Origin: an uncultured Cytophagia bacterium
GTDB taxonomy: Bacteria > Zhuqueibacterota > Zhuqueibacteria > Oceanimicrobiales > CAZGRP01
Length of the DNA: 45,447 nucleotides
NCBI GenBank assembly: GCA_964527995.1
Contig: CAZGRP010000025.1
Location: 14,998 to 60,444, forward strand
Direction: 5' to 3'
Below, piece by piece: positions 225 through 24,846 of the stretch. The notes under the pieces were generated by a model. That model saw only the letters and a list, made by a program, of their open reading frames with translations, was not told where the DNA came from and ran no database searches. Position 1 is the first letter of the stretch, and the number at the start of each line of letters is the position of its first letter. The translations under genes and the position numbers were made by a program.

Positions 225-1532
225 TCATTTGGCCTCAAGCCGATGCACGAGCTGTCTACCCTCTTCAAGCACCAGCTCCTCGGCTGTCGCCGGAAGCGGT
301 CCGGGAGCATTGAGGTATTTGAACGCCTCCTCGACTTCGTATCCACCCTTCTTGAATTCCGCCGCCGGCGGCAGATACCCCAAATACCCATTCGTGTAGG
401 AAGCGGCGAAAACCACCGTCGATCGGCCGGCTGCCTTGATCCCAAGCGAGGTCTCCGCAAACAACTCCGCCGGAGCGCCGACAATCACCGCGGGCCCGAG
501 CCGAATTGCCTGCAGCTCCGCCTCACAGCGATCAGGCGCGGTTCCTGTGCCGACAGCCATCAGGGTTTCCGTCGCCCAGGCAAGCCGCACCCGGAACATT
601 GCTTCTTCAACCGGCTCAAGTCGGCCTTTGTCGAGCTGGGAACGGCAAAACTCCATCTCGGATTCCAGAGTGTGGCGCTGCAGTTTTGCCAGCGGTAAGG
701 ACAGATGTGAAACCGCAGTTGATAGCTCGTGCCATTCCCCAACTTTGGCCTGGAGGCAGACCTTGAGCGCCTCCGCCCCAACGATTCTGCCCAACCGTTC
801 GACGATATCGAAGCCGCCGCGCTCCACTGGATTCACGTTGCCGCCGCCGCCGTTGGTGAACAGACACACAGCCCCCGGGGCGAGGGACTTTTCGAGCAAC
901 CGCGCCGCTGCTCCAGGATAGTCCGCCGAGATAAGCAAATTCTCCCTGGTCAGCACCACCGGATGACAGCCGTAGTTCAGCACCACGGCAAGCGTCCTGC
1001 CGTTCACGGCATCGATGCGGACGACAACCAGCTCGTCGTCGACCACCCCTTTCGGATCGGGTTCGGGCGACACCGACCCTGGCGGAATCCGACCGCGTCG
1101 ATTCAGTCCAATGCGGCAGTGCCCACGTCCCACTCCTATGCGCGCCGGTTCCAGACGCTGGCGCGCCCACCGAACGCAGCCGACGACCGCCTCGGCGAAA
1201 AAGTCGAGCCACGCCTGAGACACTTCTCCCAATTTCGAAAACGGCCTTGTCGACGGGCCCGAATGCGTATGGCTGCAGGCAACCATCACATGGGTCGCTG
1301 GAATGCCGCTGTCCTTCTCGACGGCCTGACGGATGTGCCGAGCCATGTCGGCATCCAGCCCGATCAGGTCGACCGCGACCAGAGCGATCTCCAAAGAACC
1401 CTGCTGAAGCACCACCGCCCGAGCAAAAAGGTCATCATGCACACCGGTCGACGCACCCGGGCGTCCGATGTAGCCCGACAAGTCGACTCCAACAGGCGGA
1501 GTGACGACGACTTTGGCTGCCCCTGCCTTCAC
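225..1532 (-). CDS. neutral/alkaline ceramidase-like hydrolase, last gene of a 3-gene operon
   Basis: ORF 225..1628 (-). N-terminal 'KVVVTPPVGVDLSGY..GVHDDLFARAVVL' resembles the ADITGP / RL.ARAfv motifs of the neutral ceramidase N-terminal domain family. There is no in-frame ATG near the 5' end. GTG at 1532..1530 forms a GTGA overlap with the TGA stop (1531..1529) of the upstream DegT gene, consistent with translational coupling. Confidence 0.4.
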   Translation of the reverse strand: MKAGAAKVVVTPPVGVDLSGYIGRPGASTGVHDDLFARAVVLQQGSLEIALVAVDLIGLDADMARHIRQAVEKDSGIPATHVMVACSHTHSGPSTRPFSKLGEVSQAWLDFFAEAVVGCVRWARQRLEPARIGVGRGHCRIGLNRRGRIPPGSVSPEPDPKGVVDDELVVVRIDAVNGRTLAVVLNYGCHPVVLTRENLLISADYPGAAARLLEKSLAPGAVCLFTNGGGGNVNPVERGGFDIVERLGRIVGAEALKVCLQAKVGEWHELSTAVSHLSLPLAKLQRHTLESEMEFCRSQLDKGRLEPVEEAMFRVRLAWATETLMAVGTGTAPDRCEAELQAIRLGPAVIVGAPAELFAETSLGIKAAGRSTVVFAASYTNGYLGYLPPAAEFKKGGYEVEEAFKYLNAPGPLPATAEELVLEEGRQLVHRLEAK

Positions 1533-2788
1533 AGAATCTCGTCCGCGTGGTCTTGAATCTTCTTCACAGCCGCAACGATGTCGTCCATATCCTCGCGGTT
1601 TCCCAGAAGCACGTGCTGCGGCAGCCACACACCCAGGGAACAGGCTTTCTCCGTCGCCGGCAGTTTCAGAGAGCTGTAGTCGCGGCTGGCGAATTCGGTG
1701 CCGCGCAGGGTGAACTCTTTGGCCTCACGCAGAAAGCCCTCCTTGTAGAGCGGCACATAGCCGGTCAGGCACGGCACGCCCTCCGCATTCAGTGCTGCCA
1801 CAAAGCGATTGCGAGGCAGCCCGTGGAACGCTGCCGGCTGGTACATGAAGATGAAGAGATGGTAGCCGTGGCGGGTGACGCGCGCATCCACCGGCAGCGG
1901 CGAAATCCCCTCGATGTCGATCAGGCGCTGGCTCAAATACCGTGCATTCTCTTCCCGCAGCCGGGTCTGTTCGTGCAGTCGCTCGAGCTGAGCTATCGCA
2001 ATGCCTGCCTGAAACTCAGTCATTCGGTAGTTCCACCCCAGGCGCGGGTGCTCATACCACTCTCCATCCGCACGGCGGCCGCAGTTGCGGTAGGACGCGC
2101 AGCGCTCGGCCAGTTCGGAATCGTCGGTCAGGATCATGCCGCCCTCGCCCGCAGTGATGTTCTTGCTGGCCTGAAAACTGAAGCAGCCGATCTGGCCGAA
2201 AGTACCGACCTTTCGTTGCCTCCATTCCGCGCCGACGGCCTGAGCGGCATCCTCGATCACCACCAGACCGTGTTTTTTCGCCACTGACAGGATGCCATCA
2301 AGGTCGGCCGGATGGCCGCCGAGATGTACAGGTAGGATCGCCCGGGTCCTGGCGGTGACCGCTGCCTCCACGGCATCGGGGTCGAGGCAAAAGTTGCGCA
2401 AATCGATGTCGGCAAAAACCGGGATGGCGTTGACGCAGAGCACGGCGGTGACAGTGGCCACAAAGGTATACGCCGGCACGATGACCTCGTCCCCCATGCC
2501 GATTCGAACCGCCTTAAGGGCTACCTCCAGTGCCGTCGTGGCGTTGAACACGGCCACGCCGTGGCTGGCGCCGTGCAGTTCCGCGAACCGCGTCTCCAGC
2601 TCCGTCACTTTACTGCCACCGATTCCCCACACCCCGCTATGCAACACCTCGAGCAGCATCCGCTCCTCCCGCCGGTCCCACACCGGCCACGACGGGAACG
2701 GGCTGCTTCTCACAGGACTCCCTCCGGCGAGGGCTAGCGTAGCCATGCATTCTCCTTCCGCGTAGCTGGTCTCTGGAATGGATGTCAT
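1529..2788 (-). CDS. DegT/DnrJ/EryC1/StrS-family PLP-dependent sugar aminotransferase (paralog 1)
   Basis: 419-aa ORF. 'VIVPAYTFVATV', 'FSFQASKNITAGEGG' (PLP-lysine motif) and 'PVHLGG' are hallmarks of the DegT family. The ATG at 2788 overlaps by 1 nt (TGATG) with the stop of the upstream SurA-like gene. Confidence 0.8.
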   Translation of the reverse strand: MTSIPETSYAEGECMATLALAGGSPVRSSPFPSWPVWDRREERMLLEVLHSGVWGIGGSKVTELETRFAELHGASHGVAVFNATTALEVALKAVRIGMGDEVIVPAYTFVATVTAVLCVNAIPVFADIDLRNFCLDPDAVEAAVTARTRAILPVHLGGHPADLDGILSVAKKHGLVVIEDAAQAVGAEWRQRKVGTFGQIGCFSFQASKNITAGEGGMILTDDSELAERCASYRNCGRRADGEWYEHPRLGWNYRMTEFQAGIAIAQLERLHEQTRLREENARYLSQRLIDIEGISPLPVDARVTRHGYHLFIFMYQPAAFHGLPRNRFVAALNAEGVPCLTGYVPLYKEGFLREAKEFTLRGTEFASRDYSSLKLPATEKACSLGVWLPQHVLLGNREDMDDIVAAVKKIQDHADEIL

Positions 2789-4552: not shown

Positions 4553-5788
4553 TCAGGCGATGGTCGGCTGGATTCTCGGTGTCCTCGGAGCGGAGACTGC
4601 GAACATTTCACGCAAGATCAGGGTTACGGCACCGAGGAGTCCGGCATCCCGGCCCAGCTTCGAGGGCACGATGCGCACGGGCTTCTCAGCGCTCAAGAAG
4701 TAGTATTTCGAAACCTCGTCCCGGAGAGGGCCGAAGTAAGCTTCGCCAGCCTCCACGATGTCGCTGTTGATGATGATGGTTTCCACGTCGAGCACGTTCA
4801 TGAGATTGCCGAGGGCCTTGCCGAGCTTTCTGGCGGCACGCTCGATGATCTCCTCGGCCCGGTCGTCCCCGGCGCGCAGGGCTTTGAGCAGACAGCCGAC
4901 GTCGAGTTTATCCGGCTGCTGGTCGCATAGTTCCGCCAGCATTGGACTCGGTCGAGAACGGGCATCCTCCAGCATCGCGGCCAGAGAAGCCACCGTCTCC
5001 AGACAACCCCGCTTTCCGCAGCCGCACGGCTTGCCGTCCTGCTCCACCACCATATGTCCAATCTCGCCGGCAATGCCACGATAGCCGTCGTACAGCTCCC
5101 TGTTCAAGACGATGCCGGCGCCGACGCCTACCTCCACGTCCACGCTGATGAAGTGGGCCATACCGCTCCGCCTGCCATGCCACATCTCGGCGAGGGCGCA
5201 GGTGCGCGCGTCGTCCTGGATGATCACGGGGAGCCCCAGCTCGCGCGAAAGATCGGGCGCCAGCGGCACTTTGTTCCAGCCGGCCAGGTTCGCCGCGATG
5301 GCGACAACGCCGGTCTCGGTGTGCACGAGCCCCGGCACAGCCACTCCGACACCGAGCACGCGCTCCCGCCTGACCTTGCTCTCAGCAAGCACCTGGCGCA
5401 CCGTCGCCGTCATCTGCTTCAGAACGGTTCCATAGCCGCTCAGCGGGTCGATTTCAGTCTGCCGCTCGGCTCGCAGCGTGAATGTCAAATCGGCCACTCC
5501 GACACGCATGCGGTCGGGAGTCAGGTCGACACCGACAGCGTAGGCACCGTCGGGATTCAACTCGACCAGCCGCGGCGGCCGGCCACCGGTGGAAACCCCC
5601 TCACCCAGTTCGCGCAGAAAACCATCCTGCACAAGCCCGTCGACAATCTTCAATACGGCCGGCAGGCTCAGCTTGGTTCTCTTGGCGATGTCTGCTCTGG
5701 AGATAGGCCCCCTCTCCCTCACCAGGCGCAGGATCAGCGACCGGTTCAGGTTCTTGAGCAGTCGCGGTTTACTTCCCAGTTGATGCAT
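4553..5788 (-). CDS. ROK-family transcriptional regulator (NagC/XylR/Mlc type)
   Basis: 411 aa. N-terminal winged-HTH ('ISRADIAKRTKLSLPAVLKIVDGL'), ROK sugar-kinase-like fold, Zn motif 'GHMVVEQDGKPCGCGKRGCLE'. An AT-rich palindromic operator sits in its own promoter (5863..5881). Confidence 0.8.
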   Translation of the reverse strand: MHQLGSKPRLLKNLNRSLILRLVRERGPISRADIAKRTKLSLPAVLKIVDGLVQDGFLRELGEGVSTGGRPPRLVELNPDGAYAVGVDLTPDRMRVGVADLTFTLRAERQTEIDPLSGYGTVLKQMTATVRQVLAESKVRRERVLGVGVAVPGLVHTETGVVAIAANLAGWNKVPLAPDLSRELGLPVIIQDDARTCALAEMWHGRRSGMAHFISVDVEVGVGAGIVLNRELYDGYRGIAGEIGHMVVEQDGKPCGCGKRGCLETVASLAAMLEDARSRPSPMLAELCDQQPDKLDVGCLLKALRAGDDRAEEIIERAARKLGKALGNLMNVLDVETIIINSDIVEAGEAYFGPLRDEVSKYYFLSAEKPVRIVPSKLGRDAGLLGAVTLILREMFAVSAPRTPRIQPTIA

Positions 5789-5860
5789 CTCGATGCCCCA
5801 GGTTCGAAGTCAGGCTCCGGCCACGTCCCGAGAACGACTCGGGAGTCCTTGGCCTTGGGA

Positions 5861-5900
5861 CTAACTTAACCAAGTTAACTTAGGGAACGCAAAAAATCAA
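5861..5900 (-). promoter_or_regulatory. ROK-gene promoter: A-tract, TTGATT (5900..5895), 17 bp spacer, TAACTT (5877..5872), with overlapping operator AACTTAACCAAGTTAACTT (5863..5881; contains the perfect 10-bp palindrome AAGTTAACTT)
   Basis: Read directly on the minus strand upstream of the ROK start (5788). The palindrome half-site doubles as the -10 element. Confidence 0.5.
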
Positions 5901-6028
5901 GCAGTTTTTCCCAGGATGTCGGCCCATCTGGCGGATCGATGGTCGCTGAACCAGGGCGATTCTGCGGCCGGCCGTGTCGATCCATGATGCTCTTCTCGCG
6001 TCACCCGGGAGAGTGAATGTTGGACTGG

Positions 6029-8548
6029 TTACGGCACCCGCCGCTCCAGCGCCTGCAGCGCCTGGGCGATCTGGCGGTTCTTCGGATGCAGCGCCAGCTC
6101 GCGCCGGAATTCTGCTTTTGCCCTGGCGATGTCGTTCATGGCAAGATATGCAAGTCCAAGGCGACCGTGAACGCCCTCCATGTCGGGCTTGCGCCGGATC
6201 GCTTCCTGAAACTCAGCGGCAGCAAAGCTGTACTCCCGCCGGCGAAAGTAGGCCACGCCCAGGGCATTGTGGGTGCGGGCAGCCATGATCTCACCGGGTC
6301 CACTCTCGAGGACGGCCTGAAATTCGCGTATGGCAGCTTCACTCCGGCCACGCTCCCCATACATGACCCCGAGGTTGTAGCGGGCACGGAGGTTGTCCGG
6401 ATCCAGCGCCAGCGATTTCTGCAGCAGGCTCCTGGCGCGGCTGAAGTCGCCCCTGTTATAGTACACACTGGCGAGATTTGCGTAGGCGTCGGCGAAGTTG
6501 GGAGCGAGTGAAATGGCCTTTTCGAAGGCGGCCATGGCTTTTTCCTCCTCACCTCTCTCGAGATAGGCGTTGCCGAGATTGTTGCAGGCCTTGGCAGAGG
6601 TGGGATCGAGCGAAAGCGCCCGCTGGTGAGCTGACACAGCCGCCGCGTAGTCGCCCCTGGCACTGTACGCTACCCCCAGATTGTCGTAGAAGGCCGCAAC
6701 ATCCGGGGCCAACTCGATGGCTTTCTTGAAAGCTCTGACGGCTTCGTCGTATGCGCCTTCCTGCCGGTACAGCAGCCCGAGGTTGTTGTAGGCGTTGGCA
6801 CTCTCCGGGTTCAGGTACCCAAGGCTCTCCAGTCGCTGGCGAATTCGTGGGTCTGCGGCAGAACGCAGCGGCTGTGGTTGGCCCTTCTCGCGGCCGAGCA
6901 GTTCCGGCTCGTAGCTCGTGATCCGATCCACCGGATGGCTCGCCAGGTAGGCAGGCTCCATAACTTCCGCCAATACCCGCCCGCTAAAGTCGGCCGGTAC
7001 CGGTAGATCGAGTAGTGCCAGCACGGTCGGCGCGATGTCGAGGACATGGGCCGACCTCAGCCGCATGCCGTGCCTGATACCGGGCCCCTTGACCACCAGA
7101 ATGCCCCGGTCTCGATGCCACTCTGCGGCATGCCCTTCGCCCACCTCGGCGCTCAGAGATGGACCGTGCTCTGGGGTGAAGAAACCATGGTCCGAAACCA
7201 GCATGATCGTCGTCTGCTGGTCCGCCAGTGACAGAATCTGCCCAAGCACACCGTCGAGAAAAACGTACATCGCCTCGATTTGCCGCCGTGCACGGGCCGG
7301 CTCGATCTCCGCACGCCCCAGGAGCCGATGACCCAGCCGATCGATGCCATCGAAGTAGAGTGCCGCAAAGTCAGGAGGGTCTCTGCGCAGCAGGTGCAGC
7401 GCAACGCGGCGGCGGAACTGGTTCTCTTTCCAGATGCGCTGGGTAACGCGGTTGACCGGTTTGATGCCGCCGGGGACTCCAGAATCATCCACCAGTGAAT
7501 CGACTTCGGCCTGGAGTAGCGCAGGAAACACCAGTGCGGAGTCCGGTCTGACTCCCTGCGTCATGCTGTCAGGAAAAAGAGAAAAGACACGATCTGTGAC
7601 CAGCCAGCCGTTTACCTGTTCCGCTGGCCAGGTGACAAGCCATCCGAGCACACCGGCGCTCTTGCCGTGCAGGCTGACGATGTTCCAGAGGGCCTGCACC
7701 CTGCGCATGTTGCGGGTGGCAGGCGCCATCTCGCCTGTCGTCGAGTCGACGGCGACGAAATCGAGGATGCCGTGCACAAGCGGCTTGCGGCCGGTAGCGA
7801 TGGTGGTCCAGATGAGGGGCGACAGAACCGGTCGAATCGTGCGCACGGGCCCACTCGTTCCGTTTCGGATGAGTCGCTGCAGGTTGGGCATCCGCCCTTT
7901 TTTCAGCAGCGGCCGGAGGTAGTTCCAGTCGGCGCCGTCCCAGCCGATGAGCCACACCCGCCGCCTGCTGACGGCTGCCCGGTGGCTTTCCATGGAAATC
8001 CGGGCATCCCGATCCGCGTCGACGCGCACCAGGCGGAGCGAATCCAGCACGATCCCGAATGGGGCCAGAAGGTTCCAGACGGTCTCTGCCGCCTGCTGCT
8101 CCATCCTCGGTCGGCTGTCGAGAAAATAAAACTTTGTGGCGCTGTTGTCGGCCGCCAACTGTCGCAGCACGTTTTCCACCGCCGGAGCGACCAGTGACGC
8201 CTTGAAGTCCAGACCGTGCTTCCGCACCAGAGGAAGCAGCTCCTCCGGTTTGAGATGCAGGCGAAGAGACACGTCCAGGCGCAACCGCAGCCCTTCCCTG
8301 CTGGTTACTTCGAGCGGCCTGCCGGCACCGAGGTTTTGGGTCCAGCGAAGTGGTACGACTTTCGTCTGGAACAGCAGAGGTAGTTGCCAGAGGCGGGTAT
8401 CGGGCAGTCGTGCAACCGAGCCAGTGAGCCGGGTGACCCGGACAGCCACCGTGCCCGGCCGGTGCTCGACCCTACCTGCCAGGTAGAGCCCCAGCAGAGC
8501 GGAGGCAAGAAGTGTCACCCCAACCGTTTTTCGAAGACCTATTCGCAA
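6029..8548 (-). CDS. membrane-anchored multidomain protein: SPFH/band-7-like domain + NPP-type (type I phosphodiesterase / nucleotide pyrophosphatase, AlkP-superfamily) domain + C-terminal TPR repeats
   Basis: 839 aa. N-terminal TM helix ('VGVTLLASALLGLYLA'). Residues ~30-190 fit the SPFH pattern. Central 'VWLIGWDGADWNYL...PVLSPLIWTTIATGRKPLVHGIL' matches the NPP 'PT.T.P....TG..P..HGI' nucleophile motif. C-terminus carries about 7 TPR repeats ('AYNNLGLLYRQEGAYDEA...'). Confidence 0.55.
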   Translation of the reverse strand: MRIGLRKTVGVTLLASALLGLYLAGRVEHRPGTVAVRVTRLTGSVARLPDTRLWQLPLLFQTKVVPLRWTQNLGAGRPLEVTSREGLRLRLDVSLRLHLKPEELLPLVRKHGLDFKASLVAPAVENVLRQLAADNSATKFYFLDSRPRMEQQAAETVWNLLAPFGIVLDSLRLVRVDADRDARISMESHRAAVSRRRVWLIGWDGADWNYLRPLLKKGRMPNLQRLIRNGTSGPVRTIRPVLSPLIWTTIATGRKPLVHGILDFVAVDSTTGEMAPATRNMRRVQALWNIVSLHGKSAGVLGWLVTWPAEQVNGWLVTDRVFSLFPDSMTQGVRPDSALVFPALLQAEVDSLVDDSGVPGGIKPVNRVTQRIWKENQFRRRVALHLLRRDPPDFAALYFDGIDRLGHRLLGRAEIEPARARRQIEAMYVFLDGVLGQILSLADQQTTIMLVSDHGFFTPEHGPSLSAEVGEGHAAEWHRDRGILVVKGPGIRHGMRLRSAHVLDIAPTVLALLDLPVPADFSGRVLAEVMEPAYLASHPVDRITSYEPELLGREKGQPQPLRSAADPRIRQRLESLGYLNPESANAYNNLGLLYRQEGAYDEAVRAFKKAIELAPDVAAFYDNLGVAYSARGDYAAAVSAHQRALSLDPTSAKACNNLGNAYLERGEEEKAMAAFEKAISLAPNFADAYANLASVYYNRGDFSRARSLLQKSLALDPDNLRARYNLGVMYGERGRSEAAIREFQAVLESGPGEIMAARTHNALGVAYFRRREYSFAAAEFQEAIRRKPDMEGVHGRLGLAYLAMNDIARAKAEFRRELALHPKNRQIAQALQALERRVP

Positions 8549-8711
8549 CGGCTACCTCGGTCGGTCGTCTTTCAAGAAACTCCTGGTTCCGGAAGCACCG
8601 AAGCGCACCGCTGTCCGCCGAAGAACACGGGCAGGGAGGACAGGACATCACGGCTCATTGGCCTTTGGGTGTTGTTCAGTGCCCCGGTGTAGTTCGGTGA
8701 CGAACCGCGAG

Positions 8712-10634
8712 CTAGGATCCCCCGTCGGGCTGCCTGACTCCCAGTGCTTCCAGCACCATTCCGGCGACGTCCGAAATCGACGCCGGCCCCTCCGGTGGCA
8801 ACGGTCTGTTGGAGAACAGGACACCCGGCACAAACTTCGGATCGGTTGAGACGTGGTCGCCGCTCCACCTTCTGAGATTGGCGCTGACAGCGGCCGTTTC
8901 CAGCTCCCCGAAGGTACTCTTCTGCGACACCCGGTATCCAGGCCGAAGGCCAATCACGAGGTCAGGGGCATCGCGAACCCAGGCTCCGGAGTAAACCTCT
9001 TCGCGCAGCGCCACGCTTTCAACGATCCTCTCGCCTGACTCCGGATCCCGCCAGGCAAGCAGGCGGCGACGGATGTCCGCCCGCAGGCTGTCGTAGGCCT
9101 CGCCGGCCGCCACCCGCCCCGACGCCTCGCGACCACGCAGATTGACGTAGATCCCGCTGAAGCCGAGCGCGTAGGCCTGGGTCGACGCTCTGTCCACCGA
9201 CCCGCGTCGTCTCTGGCCGCTCGCCCGCCGCAGGAACCCCTGCCCGAGCAGCCAGTTGTTCAGATTGACCTGCTTGCGGTAGGATGCGAAGCCATGATCC
9301 GAGATTACCACAACCTGAGCATCCTCGCCCACTTCAGCCAGCACTTCCCCCAGCAGTGAATCAGCAAGCTGATAGAACTCCAAAACCGCCGCCGGTGCGG
9401 AGCTGCCGTCCGCCCGAGGGCTCGGCGTCGGACTCCCGGGTGTACTCCAGAACATGTGTTGAACCCGATCCATCGAGTTGAACACAGCGACCACCAGCCT
9501 GTACCTGGCCACGCGCAGAATGTGCAGGAACATGCGCCGGCGCTCCTCGAACGTCTGCCGCGCATCCTGCAAAAAGGCGTGGTCGTCGAGAAATCCGTCG
9601 TTGAGCGCCCAGGTGTCAGCCCCCCAGCCCAGCGTCTTGTACAGCCCGACCGCCGCAGCCATCTCTTTCGAAAAATCAGCCGGGTAGGAAATTCGGAAAG
9701 CGGGCTCACGAGGGTCGATGTTGATCGGGCTCAGATAGAGTTTCAGGCTCGGGTTGAGCCGACGCAGGTAGAAACGTGCGATTCCCACGGTTCGCAACCA
9801 GAGGCGCCGGCGGAAACGGAGGGTCATCCAGGGACTCCACTCGCGCACGCCAAGCCGGATCCGTTGTCCTTGCAGATCGATCTGCAGGGTATCCCGGCCT
9901 CTGCGAATCAGCCGCAGCGGCACTGTCATCGGCTCTCCGTCCGCACCGACCCAGTCCCGCGGCCCGCGAATCTGTGTCACCGCCACATCCCTGTCGAACC
10001 GGACCAGCACCAGCGGAGTGGAGGCCTCTGCGCCAGCGAGCAAAGTCGAGTCGCTGACGTAGAAACGGAATGTGCCCGACGTACCCAGAAGATCCGGTGC
10101 TTCCGGTCCGGCGAGAAGGCGGCCGCCGAACCGGGCCGGCGGGAAGGTCTCCGGGCAGAAGAGGATCGCGGCAGACCGGCCGGCGTCTGCGGCCTTCTTC
10201 CAGAACGGCGTACCATGACGCGCATTGACGAACCTTGGACGCCGAATCGGCAGCCAGCCCCAAAGTGACTTACCGGGAAGAAGCATCGTCGGTGCAAAGT
10301 AAGGCTGGTACGTGGTCGGGTCGCGGCCAAGGAAGCCGAAGATCCCGGTCTGGCCAGGATTGAGCCCGGTGACGAAGCTGCTCCAGGCCACCGGCGACTC
10401 GGCAGGACGCGTGGTTGGCAGCCGCCTGTAGCCACCGGCGTCGCGCAGCCGGGTGAAATTGGGCAACAACCCTTGCTCCATCCAGCGCTCCGCCAGGCGA
10501 GCGTCGAGGCCGTCGAACCCGAGCACCACGACCCGGGTCGGTGCAGCCGCGGTTGCAGCCACAGGGCTCAACCGGAGACGGGTGGCCGTCATAAGGGCAA
10601 TGACAATCGTCACCGCCACCCCGAGCCCGAGCAT
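8712..10634 (-). CDS. NPP-family (type I phosphodiesterase / nucleotide pyrophosphatase, AlkP-superfamily) protein, membrane-anchored (paralog 2)
   Basis: 640 aa. N-terminal TM helix. 'VVVLGFDGLDARL' metal-site Asp pair. 'PTTRPAESPVAWSSFVTGLNPGQTGIF' closely matches the NPP catalytic-Thr motif '[22 protein letters not shown]'. 'VISDHGF' second metal site. Confidence 0.65.
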   Translation of the reverse strand: MLGLGVAVTIVIALMTATRLRLSPVAATAAAPTRVVVLGFDGLDARLAERWMEQGLLPNFTRLRDAGGYRRLPTTRPAESPVAWSSFVTGLNPGQTGIFGFLGRDPTTYQPYFAPTMLLPGKSLWGWLPIRRPRFVNARHGTPFWKKAADAGRSAAILFCPETFPPARFGGRLLAGPEAPDLLGTSGTFRFYVSDSTLLAGAEASTPLVLVRFDRDVAVTQIRGPRDWVGADGEPMTVPLRLIRRGRDTLQIDLQGQRIRLGVREWSPWMTLRFRRRLWLRTVGIARFYLRRLNPSLKLYLSPINIDPREPAFRISYPADFSKEMAAAVGLYKTLGWGADTWALNDGFLDDHAFLQDARQTFEERRRMFLHILRVARYRLVVAVFNSMDRVQHMFWSTPGSPTPSPRADGSSAPAAVLEFYQLADSLLGEVLAEVGEDAQVVVISDHGFASYRKQVNLNNWLLGQGFLRRASGQRRRGSVDRASTQAYALGFSGIYVNLRGREASGRVAAGEAYDSLRADIRRRLLAWRDPESGERIVESVALREEVYSGAWVRDAPDLVIGLRPGYRVSQKSTFGELETAAVSANLRRWSGDHVSTDPKFVPGVLFSNRPLPPEGPASISDVAGMVLEALGVRQPDGGS

Positions 10635-10733
10635 CCTCGCAGCAAGTGAGCAACTCAGCTGTCTTCGTCTCGGCCTCTCCTGGGTCGCCGGAAGGGATTT
10701 TGGTTGCTTTTCGATTTCTGGTTTCGTATCTAT

Positions 10734-10746
10734 CCTTGATTCAAGG
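10734..10746. promoter_or_regulatory. perfect 13-bp palindrome CCTTGATTCAAGG in the divergent Gfo / NPP-paralog-2 intergenic region
   Basis: Read directly. 35 bp upstream of the Gfo start codon. Candidate operator of a second, different regulator. Confidence 0.3.
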
Positions 10747-10780
10747 GTGAAAGGCGTCCATACGTGCGACAGGAGGGATC

Positions 10781-11755
10781 ATGGTCAGACTGGCGATCCT
10801 TGGCACCGGTTTTATCAGTGGAACCCATGCAGCCAGCGCCCGCAACCTGCCGGATGTGCGCGTCGAGGCGGTCTATAGCCGAACCGAAGCGAGTGCTGGC
10901 CGTTTCGCCACCGAATATGACATTCCAAAGACGTACACGAACTACAGAGAGTTGCTGGCGGACCCGGAAATCGACGCCGTGGTTATCGGCCTGCCGACGC
11001 CGTGGCACAGGCTGTTTACTGAGGAGGCGGCAGCAGCTGGAAAACATGTCTTGTGCGAGAAGCCAATGGCCCTTTGCGTCGAGGACGCCAAGGCGATGGT
11101 GTCCGCCTGTGACCGCGCTGGCGTCATTTTCATGGTTGCCCACGTGCTTCGTTTCTGGCCCGAGTATGTCGCGGCCAAGAAGCTGCTCGACAGCGGCGAA
11201 CTCGGCCGGGTGCGTGCGCTCTCGGCCTACCGGCTCAACCCAGTGCCACAGTGGTCGGCAGGCGGCTGGCTCCTGGTGCCAGAACAGAGCGGTGGCGTGC
11301 CCGTCGACCTGCACATCCACGATCTCGACGTCGCCACCTGGTATCTCGGAGCGCCGACACACCTCACTGCCCGCGGCCTGTGCACGGCAACGGGTCTTGT
11401 AAGCGAAGTTGTCAGCGTGTTGCAATACCCGGACGACCGCATCGCCTACGCCGAGGCCGGCTTCCTGCTGCCGGAAGGCGACTCCCTGAAGATGGGCTTC
11501 CGCATCGTCTGCGATGGCGGCGTGATCGAATACTCCAACCATTCCAACCCGACTTTGCGCGCTTCCCAGGCGGGCAAGCCGGTTCCCCTTTCTCCCCTTC
11601 CACAAGAGGATGGCTACACCGCCCAGTTACAATACTTTGCGGACTGCGTGCGGCACGGCCGCCCGCCCGATCGGTGCCCGCCGTCCGCCGCGCTGGCGGC
11701 CTTGCGGCTCGCCCTTGATGCCTGGTCGCAAGTCAAGAAAAGCCAGCCCTGCTGA
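10781..11755 (+). CDS. Gfo/Idh/MocA-family NAD(P)-dependent oxidoreductase (1 of 3)
   Basis: 324 aa. 'LAILGTGFISGTHA' Rossmann motif, 'GKHVLCEKPMA' EKP motif. RBS GGAGGG 4 nt upstream of the ATG. Confidence 0.8.
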   Translation: MVRLAILGTGFISGTHAASARNLPDVRVEAVYSRTEASAGRFATEYDIPKTYTNYRELLADPEIDAVVIGLPTPWHRLFTEEAAAAGKHVLCEKPMALCVEDAKAMVSACDRAGVIFMVAHVLRFWPEYVAAKKLLDSGELGRVRALSAYRLNPVPQWSAGGWLLVPEQSGGVPVDLHIHDLDVATWYLGAPTHLTARGLCTATGLVSEVVSVLQYPDDRIAYAEAGFLLPEGDSLKMGFRIVCDGGVIEYSNHSNPTLRASQAGKPVPLSPLPQEDGYTAQLQYFADCVRHGRPPDRCPPSAALAALRLALDAWSQVKKSQPC

Positions 11756-11827
11756 ACAGCCGATCCCGCTTCCGGATCGAACGGCGGCCATCTTCCGGCC
11801 TCTGTGCGCCTCCCGGGTGCGGCGTAG

Positions 11828-13033
11828 TCACTTCCCTTGCAGTTGCTGCTCGACGGCGTCGAGGCCCGCGAGCAGATTGCCGGTATGGTCGAGCAGGCGC
11901 TCGATCGTGCCAAACCTTCGCCACTCGAGGATGCGGTCGATGCCGTAGAACTCACCCCACAGCCGCTTCAGCTCCGCCACCAGCCGAGCCCTCTGTGCGG
12001 CGGGAAGCCTGTCTGTCTGGCTTTTCAGGCTTTGGTAGCGGGCCTCGAACCTGGTCAGGGCTTCGTTCAGCTCCTTGATCCGCCGGTGCCCGGTGGTGTC
12101 CGGCGGAGCCTGGCCGCCTTCGAAGATCTCGGTCAGCACTCGCCCTGTGGCGTCCCTCGGCGGCTCGATTCCCAGGACCCGAGCCATGGTCGGGACGATG
12201 TCGATGGATTCGGCATAGTCGAACTCGGCCCCCTGGCGGACGCCCGGCCCAACGACCACCAGCGGTGCCCGCCAACTATCTGGGTCGGCGTACGGGTGCC
12301 AGCCGCCGTCCGCCTGGCCATGGTCCGCGGTCAAGAAGATGTAGGTCGAGTCAAGGCGGCCCGTAGCATCCAGCCAGTCCACGAAGGCACCGAGCAACGA
12401 ATCGGCACGCGCGGCAGCGCTACGGTAGGGCGAGCCCGGCGCCCAAATGTTGTGGCGCCAGGGAACGTCCTCCTGCGTGCTGTAGGAAAGGTAGCCGGCG
12501 GCTCCGGTATTCTGAAGGTGAATGCGTACGAACCGCGGCTTCCCGTGCTCGATGAAGATCTGTGCCCAGAAGAGGGCATCCCGGTCGCGCCCCGGCTTCA
12601 TGAACGACAGGGCATATCCGACATCGAGCGACCGATACGCCAGGCTGTTGGTGGCGTGGGCCGTCGCTCGCCCCGGGATCGCCTGCGAGAAGAGCGGTTG
12701 CTTTGGCCGAAGAAAGATGGTGCCGGCCATGAGCACGACATTCGGGATCGAGCTGGTGTACGCCTCGCCCCAGCTTCCGCTCTGCGGATGAGCCGGCAAG
12801 ATGTGGTACAGCTCACGGAAGTAGCTGCCGCGCGACATCAGGCGGTGCAGGTTCGGCAACTCGAGCCGGGCCGGCGCCTTGTAGCTGAGGCCGTCGATGA
12901 TGAACAGAATCGCTGTCGTGCCGCGCTCCTGCGCTGGAGATGGCCTCGGCTGCCCCGCCACGATAAGCCCGGCTACCAGGGGCAGAGTGATCCACTTTTC
13001 CCGGACTCTCTGCGACCTGAGCAGTGACCACAT
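11828..13033 (-). CDS. AlkP-superfamily / NPP-like phosphoesterase, secreted (paralog 3)
   Basis: 401 aa. Signal-like N-terminus. 'ILFIIDGLSY' and 'FLTADHGQADGGWHPY' (DHG metal site) are typical of PF01663-like enzymes. Lies 21 bp downstream of the GHL10 gene on the same strand. Confidence 0.5.
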   Translation of the reverse strand: MWSLLRSQRVREKWITLPLVAGLIVAGQPRPSPAQERGTTAILFIIDGLSYKAPARLELPNLHRLMSRGSYFRELYHILPAHPQSGSWGEAYTSSIPNVVLMAGTIFLRPKQPLFSQAIPGRATAHATNSLAYRSLDVGYALSFMKPGRDRDALFWAQIFIEHGKPRFVRIHLQNTGAAGYLSYSTQEDVPWRHNIWAPGSPYRSAAARADSLLGAFVDWLDATGRLDSTYIFLTADHGQADGGWHPYADPDSWRAPLVVVGPGVRQGAEFDYAESIDIVPTMARVLGIEPPRDATGRVLTEIFEGGQAPPDTTGHRRIKELNEALTRFEARYQSLKSQTDRLPAAQRARLVAELKRLWGEFYGIDRILEWRRFGTIERLLDHTGNLLAGLDAVEQQLQGK

Positions 13034-13054
13034 GATCGCGCCCTCGGGGTTACA

Positions 13055-14803
13055 TTACTGCCGGACGCCAGCCCTGCGCCCCCGGCGTAGGATCGTGATC
13101 GCCCACAGGAGCAAGAACAGCGCCGCCGCACCAACAGCCAGAAACTCGTTGCGCCGGGCGGCGGCCAGCCGCTTCTCGAGGCGACGGAGTTGGCCGATGC
13201 TCAATTCCGCCGCCGGACGCGCTTCGAAGGGCTCAACGCTTGGGGTGGCGAAAATCTCTTCCAGGGCCGGCCACAACTTCTTGCGCGAGATCCCACCCCC
13301 GTCGAAGATCACCACGCCTTCCCCTCCACCCTTGCGCACCGCCTCGATGACCTGCTTCACCTTCTCGCCCGGATAGTACCCGGCAGGTGGATCGGCCCGG
13401 AAAGCCTGCACCGCCTGGATGAGGGCACTCACCTGGTCGGTGCCTGCAGACGGCGACAGTTCGGCAAGTCGTGAAGAGATCGCCTTCTCAGACTCGGGTG
13501 CGAACTGGGCCAGCCGGTCGCGGATCTGCTCAAATCCTTGCCGCAGCGTCCGCAGCCGCCGGCGGCGATCGCGTCGGGGCTTCGTCTCCCATCCCTGAAG
13601 CTCGGTGAGGATGTCCCGCAGCGGCTGGTCTTGCTCGCGGAAGATGTAGTGAACGTCCAACCCGACGGAGAGGTTGGCGAGACCTTTGGACCAGCGCATT
13701 TCGTAGCGGGTGTACTCTTCGAGCTGTTTCAGGAAGGTCTGCCAGTCTGTGAGCGGAAAATGGCTGCGGTACACCATCGGCATCATGATATCGATCCATG
13801 GGGCGAAGTTCGTCCACCGCTGGCCGATGAAGCGGCCGCTGGCGGTGGGATTCTTGAAGACGGCCGCCGACATCTCGATGTCGGGCTTGATAGCTTTGGC
13901 CCGTTCCCAGGCTTCGCGCACAAACCGGGTGATGGCATCGCTGCGGTAGGTGTAGAAGAAGTAGTCCAGGTCGCTGGGGCCCTGAGGCATGTAGCTACCG
14001 GTGAGCAGGAACCGTGCTTTAGCCTTGCGATCCCACTTCTGCCAGTCTTTCGGCTTGACGGTCGGATCCGACCACCAGTTGGCTTCGGGGTTGGGAAGCG
14101 TGGACACCACTGGATATCGGACGTCGGGGAAGGCGTCGTAAGAGAAATGGTTGTACTTCATGACATCCTGCAGGAAGTCGTCGTCAAAGCTGTAGCCGTC
14201 GGGAGCGACGTCGCCCGGGTAGCGCACGTAGTCGTGGTGGATGCCGTCGACATCGTACTTGCGCACAATCTCCTCGATCAGTGGTAGCAGGTACTGATCC
14301 GTGTAGCCCGGACGCTGAGCCGGACTCACCCAGGTGATGTAGTAGGGACGGCCGCCGCTCAGAAACTCGGACGTCGTCGGTTTGCCCTCGGCGTTGACCA
14401 TCAACCATTCAGGGTGCTTCTTGAGCACGGGGTTGTCGGGGCCTTCGGTGAAGTCGCACAACCAGGCATGCAGTTTGATGCCGGCGGCGTGCGACTCGCG
14501 CACCATGGCCGCCAGCGGATCGAAATCCCGGTAGTTCTCGGCGATCATCTCCGGGTTGAGATCGCTGTGGAAAAAGAGTCGGCCGCGCGTATTCTTCACA
14601 TCCATGACGATCACGTTGATGTGGGCCTTCTTGACGTGCTGCACAAAGGCACGCGCCGTGGAGTCATTGGTGATCAAACCGGGTGGATTCAGCCAGACGG
14701 CACGCCCCTCGATGACGGTCTCGCGGTCCTGAGCGCCGACCCGAGCGACCACACCAGTCAGGGCAAGCACAACGATGCTCCCCAGGACAAGCTCTTTTCT
14801 CAC
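13055..14803 (-). CDS. GHL10 (DUF187, YngK-like) glycoside-hydrolase-like TIM-barrel protein, secreted
   Basis: ORF 13055..14881 (-). 'DPLAAMVRESHAAGIKLHAWL' and 'KYDVDGIHHDYVRYPGD' match GHL10 family blocks. The ORF-track start (TTG at 14881) lies inside the plus-strand -35 TTGACA. Start re-placed at GTG 14803, preceded by AAGGAGG-N5, giving signal peptide 'MRKELVLGSIVVLALTGVVARVGAQ'. Confidence 0.6.
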   Translation of the reverse strand: MRKELVLGSIVVLALTGVVARVGAQDRETVIEGRAVWLNPPGLITNDSTARAFVQHVKKAHINVIVMDVKNTRGRLFFHSDLNPEMIAENYRDFDPLAAMVRESHAAGIKLHAWLCDFTEGPDNPVLKKHPEWLMVNAEGKPTTSEFLSGGRPYYITWVSPAQRPGYTDQYLLPLIEEIVRKYDVDGIHHDYVRYPGDVAPDGYSFDDDFLQDVMKYNHFSYDAFPDVRYPVVSTLPNPEANWWSDPTVKPKDWQKWDRKAKARFLLTGSYMPQGPSDLDYFFYTYRSDAITRFVREAWERAKAIKPDIEMSAAVFKNPTASGRFIGQRWTNFAPWIDIMMPMVYRSHFPLTDWQTFLKQLEEYTRYEMRWSKGLANLSVGLDVHYIFREQDQPLRDILTELQGWETKPRRDRRRRLRTLRQGFEQIRDRLAQFAPESEKAISSRLAELSPSAGTDQVSALIQAVQAFRADPPAGYYPGEKVKQVIEAVRKGGGEGVVIFDGGGISRKKLWPALEEIFATPSVEPFEARPAAELSIGQLRRLEKRLAAARRNEFLAVGAAALFLLLWAITILRRGRRAGVRQ

Positions 14804-14863
14804 GGAAACCTCCTTCTCCTCGGCCGGAAGATGATGGGTTCGCTGCGACGGCAGATTGGTAGG

Positions 14864-14941
14864 CGATTTTTTTCTTGACAATGAGGGAAAAGAAAACTAA
14901 ACTTCGTTAACAAAGTTAATCCAAAAGTTGGCACTTGTCAA
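14864..14941. promoter_or_regulatory. divergent back-to-back promoters (plus: TTGACA 14875..14880, 17 bp spacer, TAAACT 14898..14903; minus: TTGACA 14941..14936, 17 bp spacer, TAACTT 14918..14913) sharing the central 18-bp operator AACTTCGTTAACAAAGTT (14900..14917)
   Basis: Read directly. Lies between the GHL10-NPP operon (minus) and the SSF-AKR operon (plus). A/T tracts lie upstream of both -35 elements. Confidence 0.5.
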
Positions 14942-14999
14942 GTGAAAAAATTCTCCCGCCGACGAATCTGCGGGAGAGCGACGACGGGAGAGCCGCTCC

Positions 15000-16772
15000 A
15001 TGACCTTTACCGACTGGACCATCATCGCCCTCTATAGCGTGTTCATGCTGTTTCTTGGTGGGTACTTTACGAAACGCGCCGGCCAAAGCCTGGACGACTA
15101 CTTTCTCGCCGGGCGCGATCTGCCATGGTGGGTGCTGGGGATGTCGGCTGTCGCCTCCTACAGTGACGCTGGCATTGCACCTGCTGTGACCATGCTGGTT
15201 TTTACCGGTGGGCTGCTGGGAAACGGCATCTGGTGGCTGACGTTTCTGATATGGATGCCTCTGGTGGCGGTGGTCTGGTCCAAGCTGTGGCGGCGCCTGA
15301 ACATTCTGACCACCGCAGAATTCATCGAGGTGCGCTACTCCGGGCGGGCGGCCACGGCCTTCCGCGGCATCTACGCCGTGTTCATGGCCTTCGGCTTCGG
15401 TGTCGTTCTCATGGGGTATGTGACGAGCTGGCTCAGCAGCGCCCTTGGCCCGATTCTGGGCTGGTCGCCGCTGGCAATGATGCTGACCTTCGGCGGCCTG
15501 GCGATGATCTACACGACAGCGGCAGGTCTCTTCGGTGCCGCCTACAGCGACGTGCCACAGTTCGTCATCTTCTTCGTGGGCAATTTGATCTTCGTGCCCA
15601 TCCTGATCTCGGCTGTCGGAGGCATGGATGCAGTCTACGACGGCATCCTGCGGATGCGCGGCCCGGAGATGACAGCCGAATTCCTGAAGGTGATCCCGCC
15701 GTCGTCCTCGCTGCCGACCGTCACGATTCTGGCTTTCGTGGTGCAGGGGCTATTCTTCGCTGCCTCACCCGCAGGCGGTGAGGGCTTCACCGCCCAGCGC
15801 TTCATGGCGGCACGCAACGAGTTCCACGCTCAGATCGGACAGTTGCTCAACGCCCTGCTCACCCTGGTGGTCCGCGTCGCCCCTTTTCTGTTCATGGGAA
15901 TGGCCGCGGCCGCCATCTACCCTCCCGACGCTTTCGCCGAGCCGGCCGAGATCTGGGGAACCCTGGTCTCCAGGTACTCGGTGGTAGGGTTGACCGGGTT
16001 GTTGGTTTCCGGGATCATGGCCGCCTACATGTCAACCATCGACACGGAGATCAACTGGAGCGCTTCCTACTTCGTCAACGACATCTACAAGCGGTTTATC
16101 AAAACCGACGCCAGCCGCCAGCACTACGTCCTCGTCAGCCGGGTGACCAGCGTCCTGCTTCTTGTGCTTGCCGTGCTCTTGGCTTATTTTCTGGTCAAGG
16201 GAATGACGGCCTGGTTCCTGTTCATCAACTCAGTGATGGTGGCTTTCTTGTTGCCGCTGAGCTGGCTGCGTTTTTTCTGGTGGCGGCTCAACATCTACGG
16301 TGAGGCCGCCGCCATCGTCGGCAGCCTGCCGCTGGGGTACTTCATCTGGTTTGGCCTGGACTTCCGCGATCGGCCCTTCTGGCAGGGATTCCTGCTCCTC
16401 TTTATTGTGGGTTGGATCGTGATCCTGGCGGTGACCTACCTGACGCGGCCGGAGCGGCCAGAGACATTGCGCGAGTTCTACCTGCGCTGCCGGCCACCGG
16501 GACTCTGGGGTCCGGTGGTACGAACCCTGCCCGGCCATAGCACCGAAGAGGTTCACCGCGAAACCATCGCCGATATCGTGGACAGTGGCTTGGGCATTCT
16601 TTTCTGCGGCGGCAGCATCCTTGCCAGCATCAGCCTGCTGGGCCGGCACTGGATCACCGCCATCGTCGCCGTGCTGGTGACAACGGCAGCGCTGTGGCTG
16701 TTCGTTCTGCGCTGGAAGAAACGCGGGGTGTTTGGAGCGCTGTCGCGTAACTACCGCGAAGGTCCGTCATAG
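15000..16772 (+). CDS. sodium:solute symporter family (SSF/SLC5-like) transporter
   Basis: 590 aa, ~13 predicted TM segments. N-terminal 'DYFLAGRDLPWWVLGMSAVASYSDAG' is the SSF signature region. Confidence 0.75.
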   Translation: MTFTDWTIIALYSVFMLFLGGYFTKRAGQSLDDYFLAGRDLPWWVLGMSAVASYSDAGIAPAVTMLVFTGGLLGNGIWWLTFLIWMPLVAVVWSKLWRRLNILTTAEFIEVRYSGRAATAFRGIYAVFMAFGFGVVLMGYVTSWLSSALGPILGWSPLAMMLTFGGLAMIYTTAAGLFGAAYSDVPQFVIFFVGNLIFVPILISAVGGMDAVYDGILRMRGPEMTAEFLKVIPPSSSLPTVTILAFVVQGLFFAASPAGGEGFTAQRFMAARNEFHAQIGQLLNALLTLVVRVAPFLFMGMAAAAIYPPDAFAEPAEIWGTLVSRYSVVGLTGLLVSGIMAAYMSTIDTEINWSASYFVNDIYKRFIKTDASRQHYVLVSRVTSVLLLVLAVLLAYFLVKGMTAWFLFINSVMVAFLLPLSWLRFFWWRLNIYGEAAAIVGSLPLGYFIWFGLDFRDRPFWQGFLLLFIVGWIVILAVTYLTRPERPETLREFYLRCRPPGLWGPVVRTLPGHSTEEVHRETIADIVDSGLGILFCGGSILASISLLGRHWITAIVAVLVTTAALWLFVLRWKKRGVFGALSRNYREGPS

Positions 16773-18870: not shown

Positions 18871-19088
18871 CTCATCTCCTCATCGAAATTGGCCCTGCTA
18901 CGCGAACCCGTATAGCTACAAACCGCCGCCGCCCCTTCGTCGTTCCAACCGCTCACTTCCCTGAAGAAGGGCGTCCCTCGTCGTCTGTGGCCGCTCTCCG
19001 GTGACCCTACGCCATGGCCTCAACGGGTCTGCGACTCTGATACCTTAGGAGCCAGCCGCTCCCGGGCTCACCACTGCTTCCGCAGGAG

Positions 19089-20732: not shown

Positions 20733-20782
20733 GAGTCCTCCTTTGCGCTTGAGAGTTCATCGCGGATGGAGTCTTCGGAATT

Positions 20783-20870
20783 CGATTTTTTGCTTGACAA
20801 TGAGAAAGGAAATGTTATTTTCGGACTAACTTAACTAAACTAACTTAGTTATTCGTTTTCAAACTGTCAA
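20783..20870. promoter_or_regulatory. divergent promoters (minus: A-tract, TTGACA 20870..20865, 17 bp spacer, TAAGTT 20847..20842; plus: conserved module with TTGACA 20795..20800) flanking operator-like AACTT/AAGTT repeats (20825..20852, including AACTTAGTT)
   Basis: Read directly. Lies between the T9SS-protein-uxuA unit (minus) and the alpha/beta-hydrolase ... Gfo unit (plus). The first 22 nt of the plus-strand module (CGATTTTTTGCTTGACAATGAG) match 14864..14885 at 21 of 22 positions. Confidence 0.45.
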
Positions 20871-20900
20871 GGATTTTTCCAGAGAAGCGGAGTTGAGCAA

Positions 20901-23673: not shown

Positions 23674-23691
23674 CGGCAAGGATAGCGCACG

Positions 23692-24768: not shown

Positions 24769-24846
24769 GTTGCCACCGAATGGGTTGGGAGCCACGGCGA
24801 AGGCTGTGCGCTCTCTGAACCAGATACTGCAAAGGGTGCCGTCTAC

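Follow-up and report, generated by a model that had tools for sequence, protein, structure and literature searches.

A widespread SPFH-alkaline phosphatase-TPR fusion with a predicted extracytoplasmic location, and the membership of one representative in a conserved sugar-associated locus

What is an enzyme of the alkaline phosphatase (AlkP) superfamily doing between an SPFH/Band_7 core and an array of TPR repeats, and why is it encoded beside two further members of the same superfamily? The question is raised by a 45,447-nucleotide (nt) stretch of DNA from an uncultured Cytophagia bacterium (contig CAZGRP010000025.1 of GenBank assembly GCA_964527995.1; hereafter the window, with a G+C content of 60-65%), which we studied through its open reading frames (ORFs) and through Pfam, NCBIfam and hydropathy scans, with a focus on positions 6029-13033 and the flanking genes. 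An initial annotation of this DNA had placed three genes with AlkP-superfamily cores within these 7 kb, in agreement with the coordinates and Pfam matches obtained here; we term them genes 1, 2 and 3 (Table 1). Profile comparisons and gene order point to gene 1 as the representative of a widespread fusion, and to the region as part of a conserved locus whose enzymes may act on a phosphate-decorated glycan.

The composition of gene 1 as a fusion of SPFH, NPP-like and TPR parts, which had been proposed from the outset, is recovered by a Pfam scan, with matches to Band_7 (residues 30-192; E 3.1e-10, 40.8 bits, cut-off 23.6), Phosphodiest (PF01663; residues 200-458; E 6e-32, 112 bits, cut-off 23) and TPR families (residue 580 to about 835; best E 5e-47). 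The gene starts with a TTG codon, with a GAGG Shine-Dalgarno sequence 6 nt upstream; the deposited NCBI product has 829 amino acids (aa) and begins at V11. Residues R2, R6 and K7 lie ahead of its hydrophobic helix, which is predicted to be an N-in signal anchor that leaves the remaining protein outside the cytoplasm; this orientation is suggested by the positive-inside rule together with the lipoprotein signal of an ortholog described below. For the domain that follows the helix, a profile of 43 N-terminal domains from the gene 1 family (172 positions) retrieved flotillin-1 (6e-07), prohibitin (8e-07) and HflC (1e-04) from the PDB, with positions 5-166 of the 172 aligned, and it also matched flotillin-2, prohibitin-1 and -2, erlins, stomatin and QmcA. 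In a single-sequence phmmer search of residues 1-196 against 1.84 billion representatives, 51 proteins were found, nearly all of 200-520 aa, and the ten of these that were scanned were all plain Band_7 proteins. These profile matches and stand-alone Band_7 matches lend strong support to the domain being a genuine SPFH core. In a comparison that addressed whether gene 1 gained its SPFH part separately from its family, this region scores 71.6 bits against a family profile built without it, in the same range as a set of stand-alone SPFH proteins. An AlphaFold2 model of the protein (predicted local distance difference test score 86.3) presents a beta-rich part, helices and a strand at residues 166-178, with the core ending at about residues 178-187 and a low-confidence linker at 180-192. 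At the other end of the protein, the TPR region matches consensus TPR proteins and the TPR domain of O-GlcNAc transferase in the PDB, and the array is kept in 35 of 36 gene 1 homologs.

Within the AlkP-fold domain the candidate active site consists of D204, S243, D403, H407, D453, H454 and H478. All of these, along with P244, are invariant both in an alignment of gene 1 with 35 full-length homologs (36 sequences) and in an alignment of the catalytic domain with 39 genomic homologs (40 sequences). When compared with solved structures, the catalytic-domain profile matches phosphonoacetate hydrolase PhnA (2e-11) and the Xanthomonas NPP (3e-09), and S243 is aligned to the catalytic Thr of PhnA. 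Because of this alignment and the invariant ligand set, gene 1 holds a complete NPP-type two-metal site with a Ser nucleophile. The initial annotation had instead spoken of a textbook NPP motif with a catalytic Thr, a description that fails in two respects. First, the residue aligned with the catalytic Thr of NPP and PhnA is Ser in each of the three genes, namely S243 in gene 1, S80 in gene 2, where the motif quoted as textbook lies, and S95 in gene 3. The change appears to be a variant rather than a loss, the two residues being chemically equivalent, as in E. coli alkaline phosphatase. Second, where NPP and PhnA have an Asn after the HGI motif, genes 1 and 2 have an aligned Phe; in gene 1 this is Phe264 ('HGivdF' opposite 'HGICGN' of PhnA), and D263 beside it is invariant. 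The Asn in question, N111 in the Xanthomonas axonopodis enzyme (Xac NPP), contacts the phosphoryl group through a hydrogen bond. In terms of structure, the alpha/beta core of gene 1 is closest to NPP-type structures; PafA is the top match of the AlkP-superfamily fold, and NPP7 and NPP6 are among the neighbors. The earlier statement that sulfatase signatures are absent stands, as a motif scan found no C/S-x-P-x-R at the nucleophile position of genes 1, 2 or 3. Genes 2 and 3 lack the motif altogether. Gene 1 has a single match, an SGPVR at residue 232, which we considered as a sulfatase motif and rejected for its lack of conservation and because it precedes the nucleophile by 11 residues.

The other two genes encode distinct versions of the same superfamily. 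Gene 2 matches Phosphodiest in two stretches (E 2.9e-38, 132.8 bits), has a hydrophobic N-terminal segment and an insertion of about 190 residues, and belongs to a family of more than 3124 members; its candidate active site (D41, S80, D389, H393, D446, H447, H594) is invariant in 36 homologs, and a PDB search with it returned no sequence relative. In gene 3, Pfam matches to Sulfatase (1.5e-11) and Phosphodiest (2e-10) are confined to the C-terminal half, and the fold is closest to that of Xac NPP even though the two families score equally. Its invariant residues form an unusual set (D47, S95-x-P-N98, H172-x-Q174, D237-H238, H246), and it has a signal-peptide-like N-terminus and a helical C-terminal extension. 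Its family is small, with 43 matches among 5.8 billion clusters in a word-indexed search, and some relatives carry a PF06439 fusion. Genes 1 and 2 are 28% identical over fragments, and gene 3 aligns to gene 1 over 139 C-terminal residues alone. By these comparisons the three are best viewed as remote superfamily relatives (at most 28% identity), so that the term paralogs, under which they were first described, is apt at the superfamily level and misleading if taken to mean recent duplicates.

How common is the three-domain architecture? A search with residues 1-575 of gene 1 yielded 589 proteins, and Phosphodiest+TPR proteins are widespread in metagenome-assembled genomes of Acidobacteriota, Polarisedimenticolia, Eisenbacteria, Myxococcota and Planctomycetota, with further relatives in Latescibacteria. 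A Pfam Band_7 match is present in 21 of 36 gene 1 homologs with at least 80% coverage. A survey limited to a single genome for each GTDB species counted at least 565 stretches that code for gene 1 relatives, of which the best 80 (27-37% identity to gene 1) were examined. The family SPFH model matches the N-terminus of the homolog in 48 of these 80 loci, and an hhalign comparison with the SPFH profile adds 7 further long homologs (99.5% probability, E 3.5e-22), one of them from a cultured organism, Acidobacteria bacterium Mor1 (CP011806). These two sets together place the architecture in at least 55 of the 80 best loci, mostly from Acidobacteriota, which suggests that it is a common, unannotated feature of the family. 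The source annotations read 'alkaline phosphatase family protein' or 'tetratricopeptide repeat protein'. The view that this architecture had not been described thus holds for the literature searched (on SPFH with alkaline phosphatase or TPR, on PF01663 with PF01145, and on COG3379), where no paper on it was found; it does not extend to the databases, where the tri-domain form abounds. A 2009 survey of prokaryotic SPFH proteins makes no mention of a catalytic domain joined directly to an SPFH core (PMC2636767), and a soil phosphatase screen names 'alkaline phosphatase family proteins' without stating that they are linked to the gene 1 family (PMC6355987).

We next consider the genes that surround this protein. 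A sugar oxidoreductase of the GFO/IDH/MocA family (hereafter MocA), overlooked in the initial annotation, lies on the plus strand between genes 2 and 3 and splits two minus-strand units, GHL10-gene 3 and gene 2-gene 1-ROK. Its best NCBIfam match is IolG-like (inositol 2-dehydrogenase), at 144.7 bits and below the cut-off of 355. The GHL10 protein matches Pfam GHL10 (PF02638; E 6.5e-23, 81.7 bits, cut-off 27.9) as well as DUF4015 and GHL6, and its stop codon is separated by 21 nt from gene 3 downstream on the same strand. By Pfam, an aldo-keto reductase is divergent from GHL10, as is the SSF symporter, and the best NCBIfam matches of the ROK regulator are NagC and Mlc, both below their cut-offs. 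A promoter and terminator scan of 5600-15100 gave nothing above shuffled expectation. An Rfam scan of the window found no RNA gene in the region; its single match, and the sole RNA gene detected in the window, is a tRNA-Leu(CAA) at 37531-37618 (-).

Table 1. Features of the gene 1 locus and parts of the gene 1 product, in window coordinates.
Feature	Position	Strand	Description and basis
Gene 1	6029..8548	-	839-aa transmembrane (TM)-SPFH-AlkP(NPP-like)-TPR protein; ORF, translation, Pfam
N-terminal hydrophobic helix of gene 1, residues 9-27	8468..8524	-	hydropathy scan; helix 2-25 in model
SPFH/Band_7 core of gene 1, residues 29-192	7973..8464	-	no coiled coil after it; Pfam, profile, model
Alkaline-phosphatase-fold domain of gene 1, NPP/PafA type, residues 197-548	6905..7960	-	
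Seven TPR repeats and capping helix of gene 1, residues 580-836	6041..6811	-	Pfam TPR families; helix pairs in model
Gene 2	8712..10634	-	640-aa stand-alone Phosphodiest protein; Pfam
GFO/IDH/MocA NAD-dependent sugar oxidoreductase	10781..11755	+	divergent from gene 2; Pfam
Gene 3	11828..13033	-	401-aa secreted alkaline-phosphatase-superfamily protein; small family
GHL10 glycoside-hydrolase-like protein	13055..14881	-	signal peptide and C-terminal TM helix; Pfam, hydropathy
Sodium:solute symporter (SSF)	15000..16772	+	divergent from GHL10; Pfam SSF
ROK-family regulator, winged-helix N-terminus (NagC/Mlc-like)	4553..5788	-	downstream of gene 1; Pfam

Two further ORFs in this region were rejected as genes: one at 10730-11605 (-), which lies opposite the Pfam-supported MocA gene and has a translation that is not protein-like, and one at 11837-13027 (+), opposite the Pfam-supported gene 3. 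Elsewhere in the window, a 546-aa ORF at 23155-24795 (-) that has no Pfam match and is antisense to another MocA gene (23692-24768, +) is, like these two, probably a spurious long ORF arising from the high G+C.

Is this arrangement conserved? In a metagenomic relative (JGI sample 3300045763) the gene order of the window is kept, with proteins 50-71% identical. On one of its contigs (L083), the aldo-keto reductase, SSF and GHL10 genes are followed by homologs of gene 3 (71%) and gene 2 (58%), with MocA between these two, and then by the N-terminal end of a gene 1 homolog (50%, SPFH included). Another (L081) opens with the C-terminal part of a gene 1 homolog (59%); next come, as in the window, genes for ROK proteins, CutC, a SurA-like protein and DegT, and one that is ceramidase-like. 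The pairing of GHL10 and gene 3, which had been recognized early and rests on their closeness on one strand, is likewise kept in the first of these contigs. In the second relative, represented by the Logan contigs L090 and L091, orthologs of the window proteins (37-55% identical) are condensed into a one-strand operon, with overlaps or gaps of a few bases between genes, in the order MocA, GHL10, SSF, a gene 2-like gene (39%), a 745-aa AlkP+TPR protein, Phosphodiest, APS kinase, Phosphodiest, ROK and CutC. The SSF of L090 is 55% identical, and its start overlaps the stop of GHL10. GHL10 orthologs in L083 and L090 show 47% identity, MocA orthologs are present in both, and in both L081 and L090 a ROK ortholog comes after that of gene 1. 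When GHL10 was used to scan metagenomes, 3 matches resulted, all weak and partial. Judged by this recurrence in two metagenomic relatives, MocA/GHL10/SSF/gene 2/gene 1/ROK is a conserved unit, of which the window region appears to be a member and to which gene 3 seems to be an addition in the lineage of the window.

The 745-aa protein of L090, which is 37% identical to residues 178-837 of gene 1, lacks the SPFH core and instead has a lipoprotein signal (...AAIFAISC) and a Lys/Asn-rich linker. Since this closest clustered ortholog swaps the TM helix and SPFH core for a lipoprotein anchor, the SPFH part looks like an exchangeable tether rather than a required scaffold.

Further contexts were seen for the individual families. 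In L090 (11197-14518), and also in L091, an APS (adenosine 5'-phosphosulfate) kinase (PF01583, E 1e-52) lies between two Phosphodiest paralogs of 467 and 421 aa, which probably lack signal peptides, since their Pfam match begins at residue 4-6. This set, which has no counterpart in the window, hints at chemistry on APS, 3'-phospho-APS or sulfated substrates. Members of the gene 3 family elsewhere adjoin PL8 lyases, DUF4832, sugar ABC transporters and GHL10. At two loci (L095:8001-13413 and L096:6416-14887) the gene 2 family is found near UbiA, radical SAM, glycosyltransferase, PMT_2, polyprenyl synthase, sulfatase and Wzy_C+TPR genes, a context that looks like lipid-linked glycan biosynthesis, in contrast to the catabolic one of the window.

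What, then, might the enzymes of the window do? We favor, as an explanation that is possible while still falling short of probable, that the extracytoplasmic enzymes of the conserved locus process a phosphate-ester-decorated glycan or amino-sugar polymer, the products of which would be imported and then oxidized. This is suggested by the operon partners, namely GHL10, SSF, MocA and a NagC-like ROK regulator, and is in keeping with a window that is otherwise rich in glycan-degradation genes. The extracytoplasmic location of the enzymes, also part of the earlier proposal, is supported by the basic residues ahead of the gene 1 anchor, the lipoprotein signal of the L090 ortholog, the hydrophobic N-termini of gene 2 and GHL10 and the signal-like N-terminus of gene 3. 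For gene 1 we infer the topology, the chemistry and the roles of the SPFH and TPR parts as follows. It would be the membrane-tethered member of the set, in which an N-in anchor helix and an SPFH core that faces the periplasm keep a two-metal phosphoesterase of NPP/PafA type close to the outer surface of the cytoplasmic membrane. There, Ser243 would act as the nucleophile and form a covalent phospho-enzyme intermediate, as in the mechanism of alkaline phosphatase and NPP, with D204, D453 and H454 predicted to bind one of the metals and D403, H407 and H478 the other. The seven TPRs may offer a binding surface for a partner or a polymeric substrate, and genes 2 and 3 would supply further extracytoplasmic members of the superfamily, either soluble or anchored, that have other pockets. 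A putative phosphate-linked glycan substrate, one possibility raised in the initial annotation, fits the conserved operon.

Several observations weigh against this explanation, in which the substrate of genes 1-3 is putative. With Phe aligned to the phosphoryl-contacting Asn of NPP and PhnA, the chemistry could differ from that of classical NPPs. The characterized GHL10 proteins are mixed in their activities, Cwp19 cleaving peptidoglycan and DogH being starch-active. In the 80 genomic relatives, gene 2, gene 3, GHL10 and SSF are not neighbors of the gene 1 homologs; the neighbors there are housekeeping and envelope genes, such as an LptF/G fusion, DnaE, MetK, AhcY, ParAB, ribosomal protein S1 and a porin-like outer-membrane protein. 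Owing to these neighbors of the distant relatives, the catabolic interpretation may hold just for the orthologous subgroup to which gene 1 of the window belongs. Finally, the gene 1 model has no coiled coil between the SPFH core and the enzyme domain, and in other family members, too, the enzyme domain begins at about residue 190-200.

The last point bears on whether gene 1 forms a scaffold. The solved SPFH rings and cages known to date, as in the HflK/C, flotillin, prohibitin and stomatin structures, all use a coiled coil. The suggestion of a scaffolded microdomain complex in the initial annotation is accordingly not sustained, given the missing coiled coil after the SPFH core and the lipoprotein anchor of the L090 ortholog, and any ring or cage assembly by the gene 1 SPFH core is hypothetical. 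A bolder, improbable version is that these fusions constitute a new class of periplasmic SPFH assembly, in which the cores would lie side by side on the outer leaflet with no coiled coil to join them, the TPR solenoids perhaps giving the ring contacts, and corral a membrane patch where the tethered phosphoesterase processes a phospho-substrate that is lipid-linked or close to the membrane. If true, the enzyme would come with a membrane microdomain of its own and have a conserved, near-housekeeping envelope function in Acidobacteriota.

Of the alternatives to glycan processing, a role in envelope biogenesis or remodeling survives best, and we regard it as unlikely, if far from negligible. Here, genes 1 and 2 would act on membrane-embedded, lipid-linked phosphorylated intermediates at the outer face of the inner membrane, such as polyprenyl-phospho-sugars, lipid A/lipopolysaccharide or other glycolipid head groups, and the clustering with GHL10 and SSF would reflect cell-wall turnover rather than the catabolism of nutrients. 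In Acidobacteriota the gene 1 family is represented by one conserved gene, whose context is that of housekeeping or envelope genes, with a porin-like outer-membrane protein nearby. In 23-27 of the 80 loci, mostly from that phylum, a fused LptF/LptG permease for lipopolysaccharide export, of about 800 aa, is convergent with the gene 1 homolog at a median of about 21 nt (for example at L053:12425-15277 and L005:12704-15130, with DnaE, MetK and AhcY upstream). The gene 2 family elsewhere sometimes adjoins UbiA prenyltransferases, polyprenyl synthase, glycosyltransferases, PMT_2 and Wzy_C+TPR genes, which counts for envelope biogenesis and against a catabolic role. The SPFH core and TM anchor of gene 1 would put its active site at the membrane, and its structural neighbors NPP7 and NPP6 work on lipid head groups. 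However, the convergent orientation of lptFG does not amount to co-transcription, and DnaE, MetK and ParAB are unrelated housekeeping neighbors. Moreover, the layout in the window lineage is catabolic, with a symporter, a sugar oxidoreductase and a NagC-like repressor that form one operon in L090.

Phosphate scavenging is rather unlikely. The three genes would then be broad-specificity ecto-phosphatases or diesterases that liberate phosphate from organic phosphorus in the environment. They would be functional counterparts of PhoA, PhoD, PafA and NPP, with the extra domains serving for surface retention alone. The superfamily fold with PafA as its top structural match, the presence of several different superfamily members side by side and the abundance of relatives in soil and sediment Acidobacteriota all agree with such a role. 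Yet Pfam scans of the window proteins turned up no gene of a phosphate regulon, be it pst, phoU, phoBR or another, the conserved partners relate to sugars, and a seven-repeat TPR array kept in nearly all homologs is hard to square with a non-specific scavenger.

We consider it very improbable that the locus serves the catabolism of head groups of glyco-inositol-phospho-sphingolipids or other phospholipids, in which an NPP7/NPP6-like enzyme would free the phospho-head group, the ceramidase-like protein and GHL10 would act on the lipid and glycan moieties, SSF would import inositol or sugar and the IolG-like MocA would oxidize it. The inositol 2-dehydrogenase match of MocA accords with these steps, as does the fact that SPFH proteins associate with ordered lipid domains, but that match is well below its cut-off. 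Likewise, the ceramidase-like gene of the window, at 225-1628 (-), has the same relative position in L081; it encodes, however, a 467-aa protein whose match to neutral/alkaline ceramidases covers the N-terminal part of that family alone (Pfam E 3e-18; in NCBIfam, 28.5 bits against a cut-off of 1200), three unrelated genes separate it from gene 1, and no ceramidase occurs in the L090 operon within the stretch read. A chance juxtaposition of three functionally unlinked superfamily genes, to which the low mutual identity of genes 1-3, the opposite-strand gene between them and the lack of these neighbors around most of the distant gene 1 homologs might point, is highly implausible because of the synteny in L083 and L090, where the order is kept at 50-71% identity in one relative and condensed to a tight operon at 37-55% in the other.

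Beyond the locus, positions 17898-33735 hold a dense glycan- and uronate-utilization set: the mannonate dehydratase UxuA, a DMFA2_C-like protein whose FlgD_ig tail lies at 19089-20732, a hydrolase that resembles glucuronyl esterases, a protein similar to GlcNAc-2-epimerase, two MocA oxidoreductases besides that of the locus, a 742-aa DUF4434 protein, a heparinase II/III-like protein of 1079 aa, an FAA hydrolase and an Nramp transporter. The gene at 34692-36956 (+) encodes an M6 peptidase, similar to immune inhibitor A, that carries a lectin-like domain and ends in a Por_Secre_tail, a sorting domain of the type IX secretion system. This sorting domain and the FlgD_ig tail together suggest an organism of the FCB group. 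At 44509-45354 (-), beside an M50 peptidase and a PfkB kinase, lies a SAM hydroxide adenosyltransferase (SAM_HAT_N/C), which appears unrelated to the fusion and its locus.

While its three domain types are familiar, we found no description, in the literature searched, of a catalytic domain that follows directly on an SPFH core in one protein, and neither the SPFH-AlkP-TPR fusion nor the gene cluster has been characterized there so far. The finding marks a well-defined gap rather than overturning current knowledge. The phyla that host these genes occur in abundance in soil and sediment, and the larger part of their envelope and nutrient-acquisition biochemistry is uncharted. With close orthologs that use a lipoprotein anchor, the gene 1 family lends itself naturally to asking what role an SPFH core plays when it has no coiled coil. 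The operon with GHL10, SSF and a sugar oxidoreductase, in turn, provides an entry point to the substrates of two large and one small uncharacterized Phosphodiest families.

In comparison with known systems, gene 1 combines features that are otherwise seen apart. It has in common with HflK/HflC, prohibitins, flotillins and stomatin an N-terminal membrane anchor followed by an SPFH core, and its predicted periplasm-facing topology is similar to that of HflK/C and prohibitin. Unlike them, it has neither coiled-coil nor C-terminal oligomerization segments, the enzyme domain following about 5 residues after the core and linker. Among the neighbors scanned by Pfam, in which short ORFs were not covered exhaustively, no NfeD or FtsH partner or other SPFH-associated protease was evident. 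With Xanthomonas axonopodis NPP and the eukaryotic ENPP4/6/7 (PF01663), gene 1 shares the six metal ligands in the same order and motifs (DG..., D-x-x-x-H, SDHG and a late His) and, by prediction, an extracytoplasmic location. It differs in its Ser-Pro nucleophile, as opposed to Thr-[FY]-Pro, and in the Phe after HGI; its similarity to Xac NPP is at the profile level alone, and SPFH and TPR domains are not known from any characterized NPP. Genes 2 and 3 depart from NPPs by the insertion and the C-terminal extension, respectively. PafA, the alkaline phosphatase of Bacteroidota, and PhnA are about 20% identical to gene 1 or less; PhnA is cytoplasmic and cleaves a C-P bond, and neither of the two is known to be membrane-tethered or fused to SPFH or TPR domains. 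As for the upstream partner of gene 3, the GHL10 family, which includes E. coli DigH/YddW, also contains Cwp19 of C. difficile and DogH of D. radiodurans; the window protein differs from these by a TM helix at its C-terminus and by some 200 additional residues. Lastly, the membrane-anchored AlkP-superfamily enzymes of the sulfatase-like clade, namely LtaS, EptA/MCR-1, OpgB, BcsG and PbgA/YejM, bind lipid donors through multi-helix TM domains and use a single-metal Thr site (PF00884), whereas gene 1 couples one TM helix and an SPFH core to a predicted NPP-type two-metal site.

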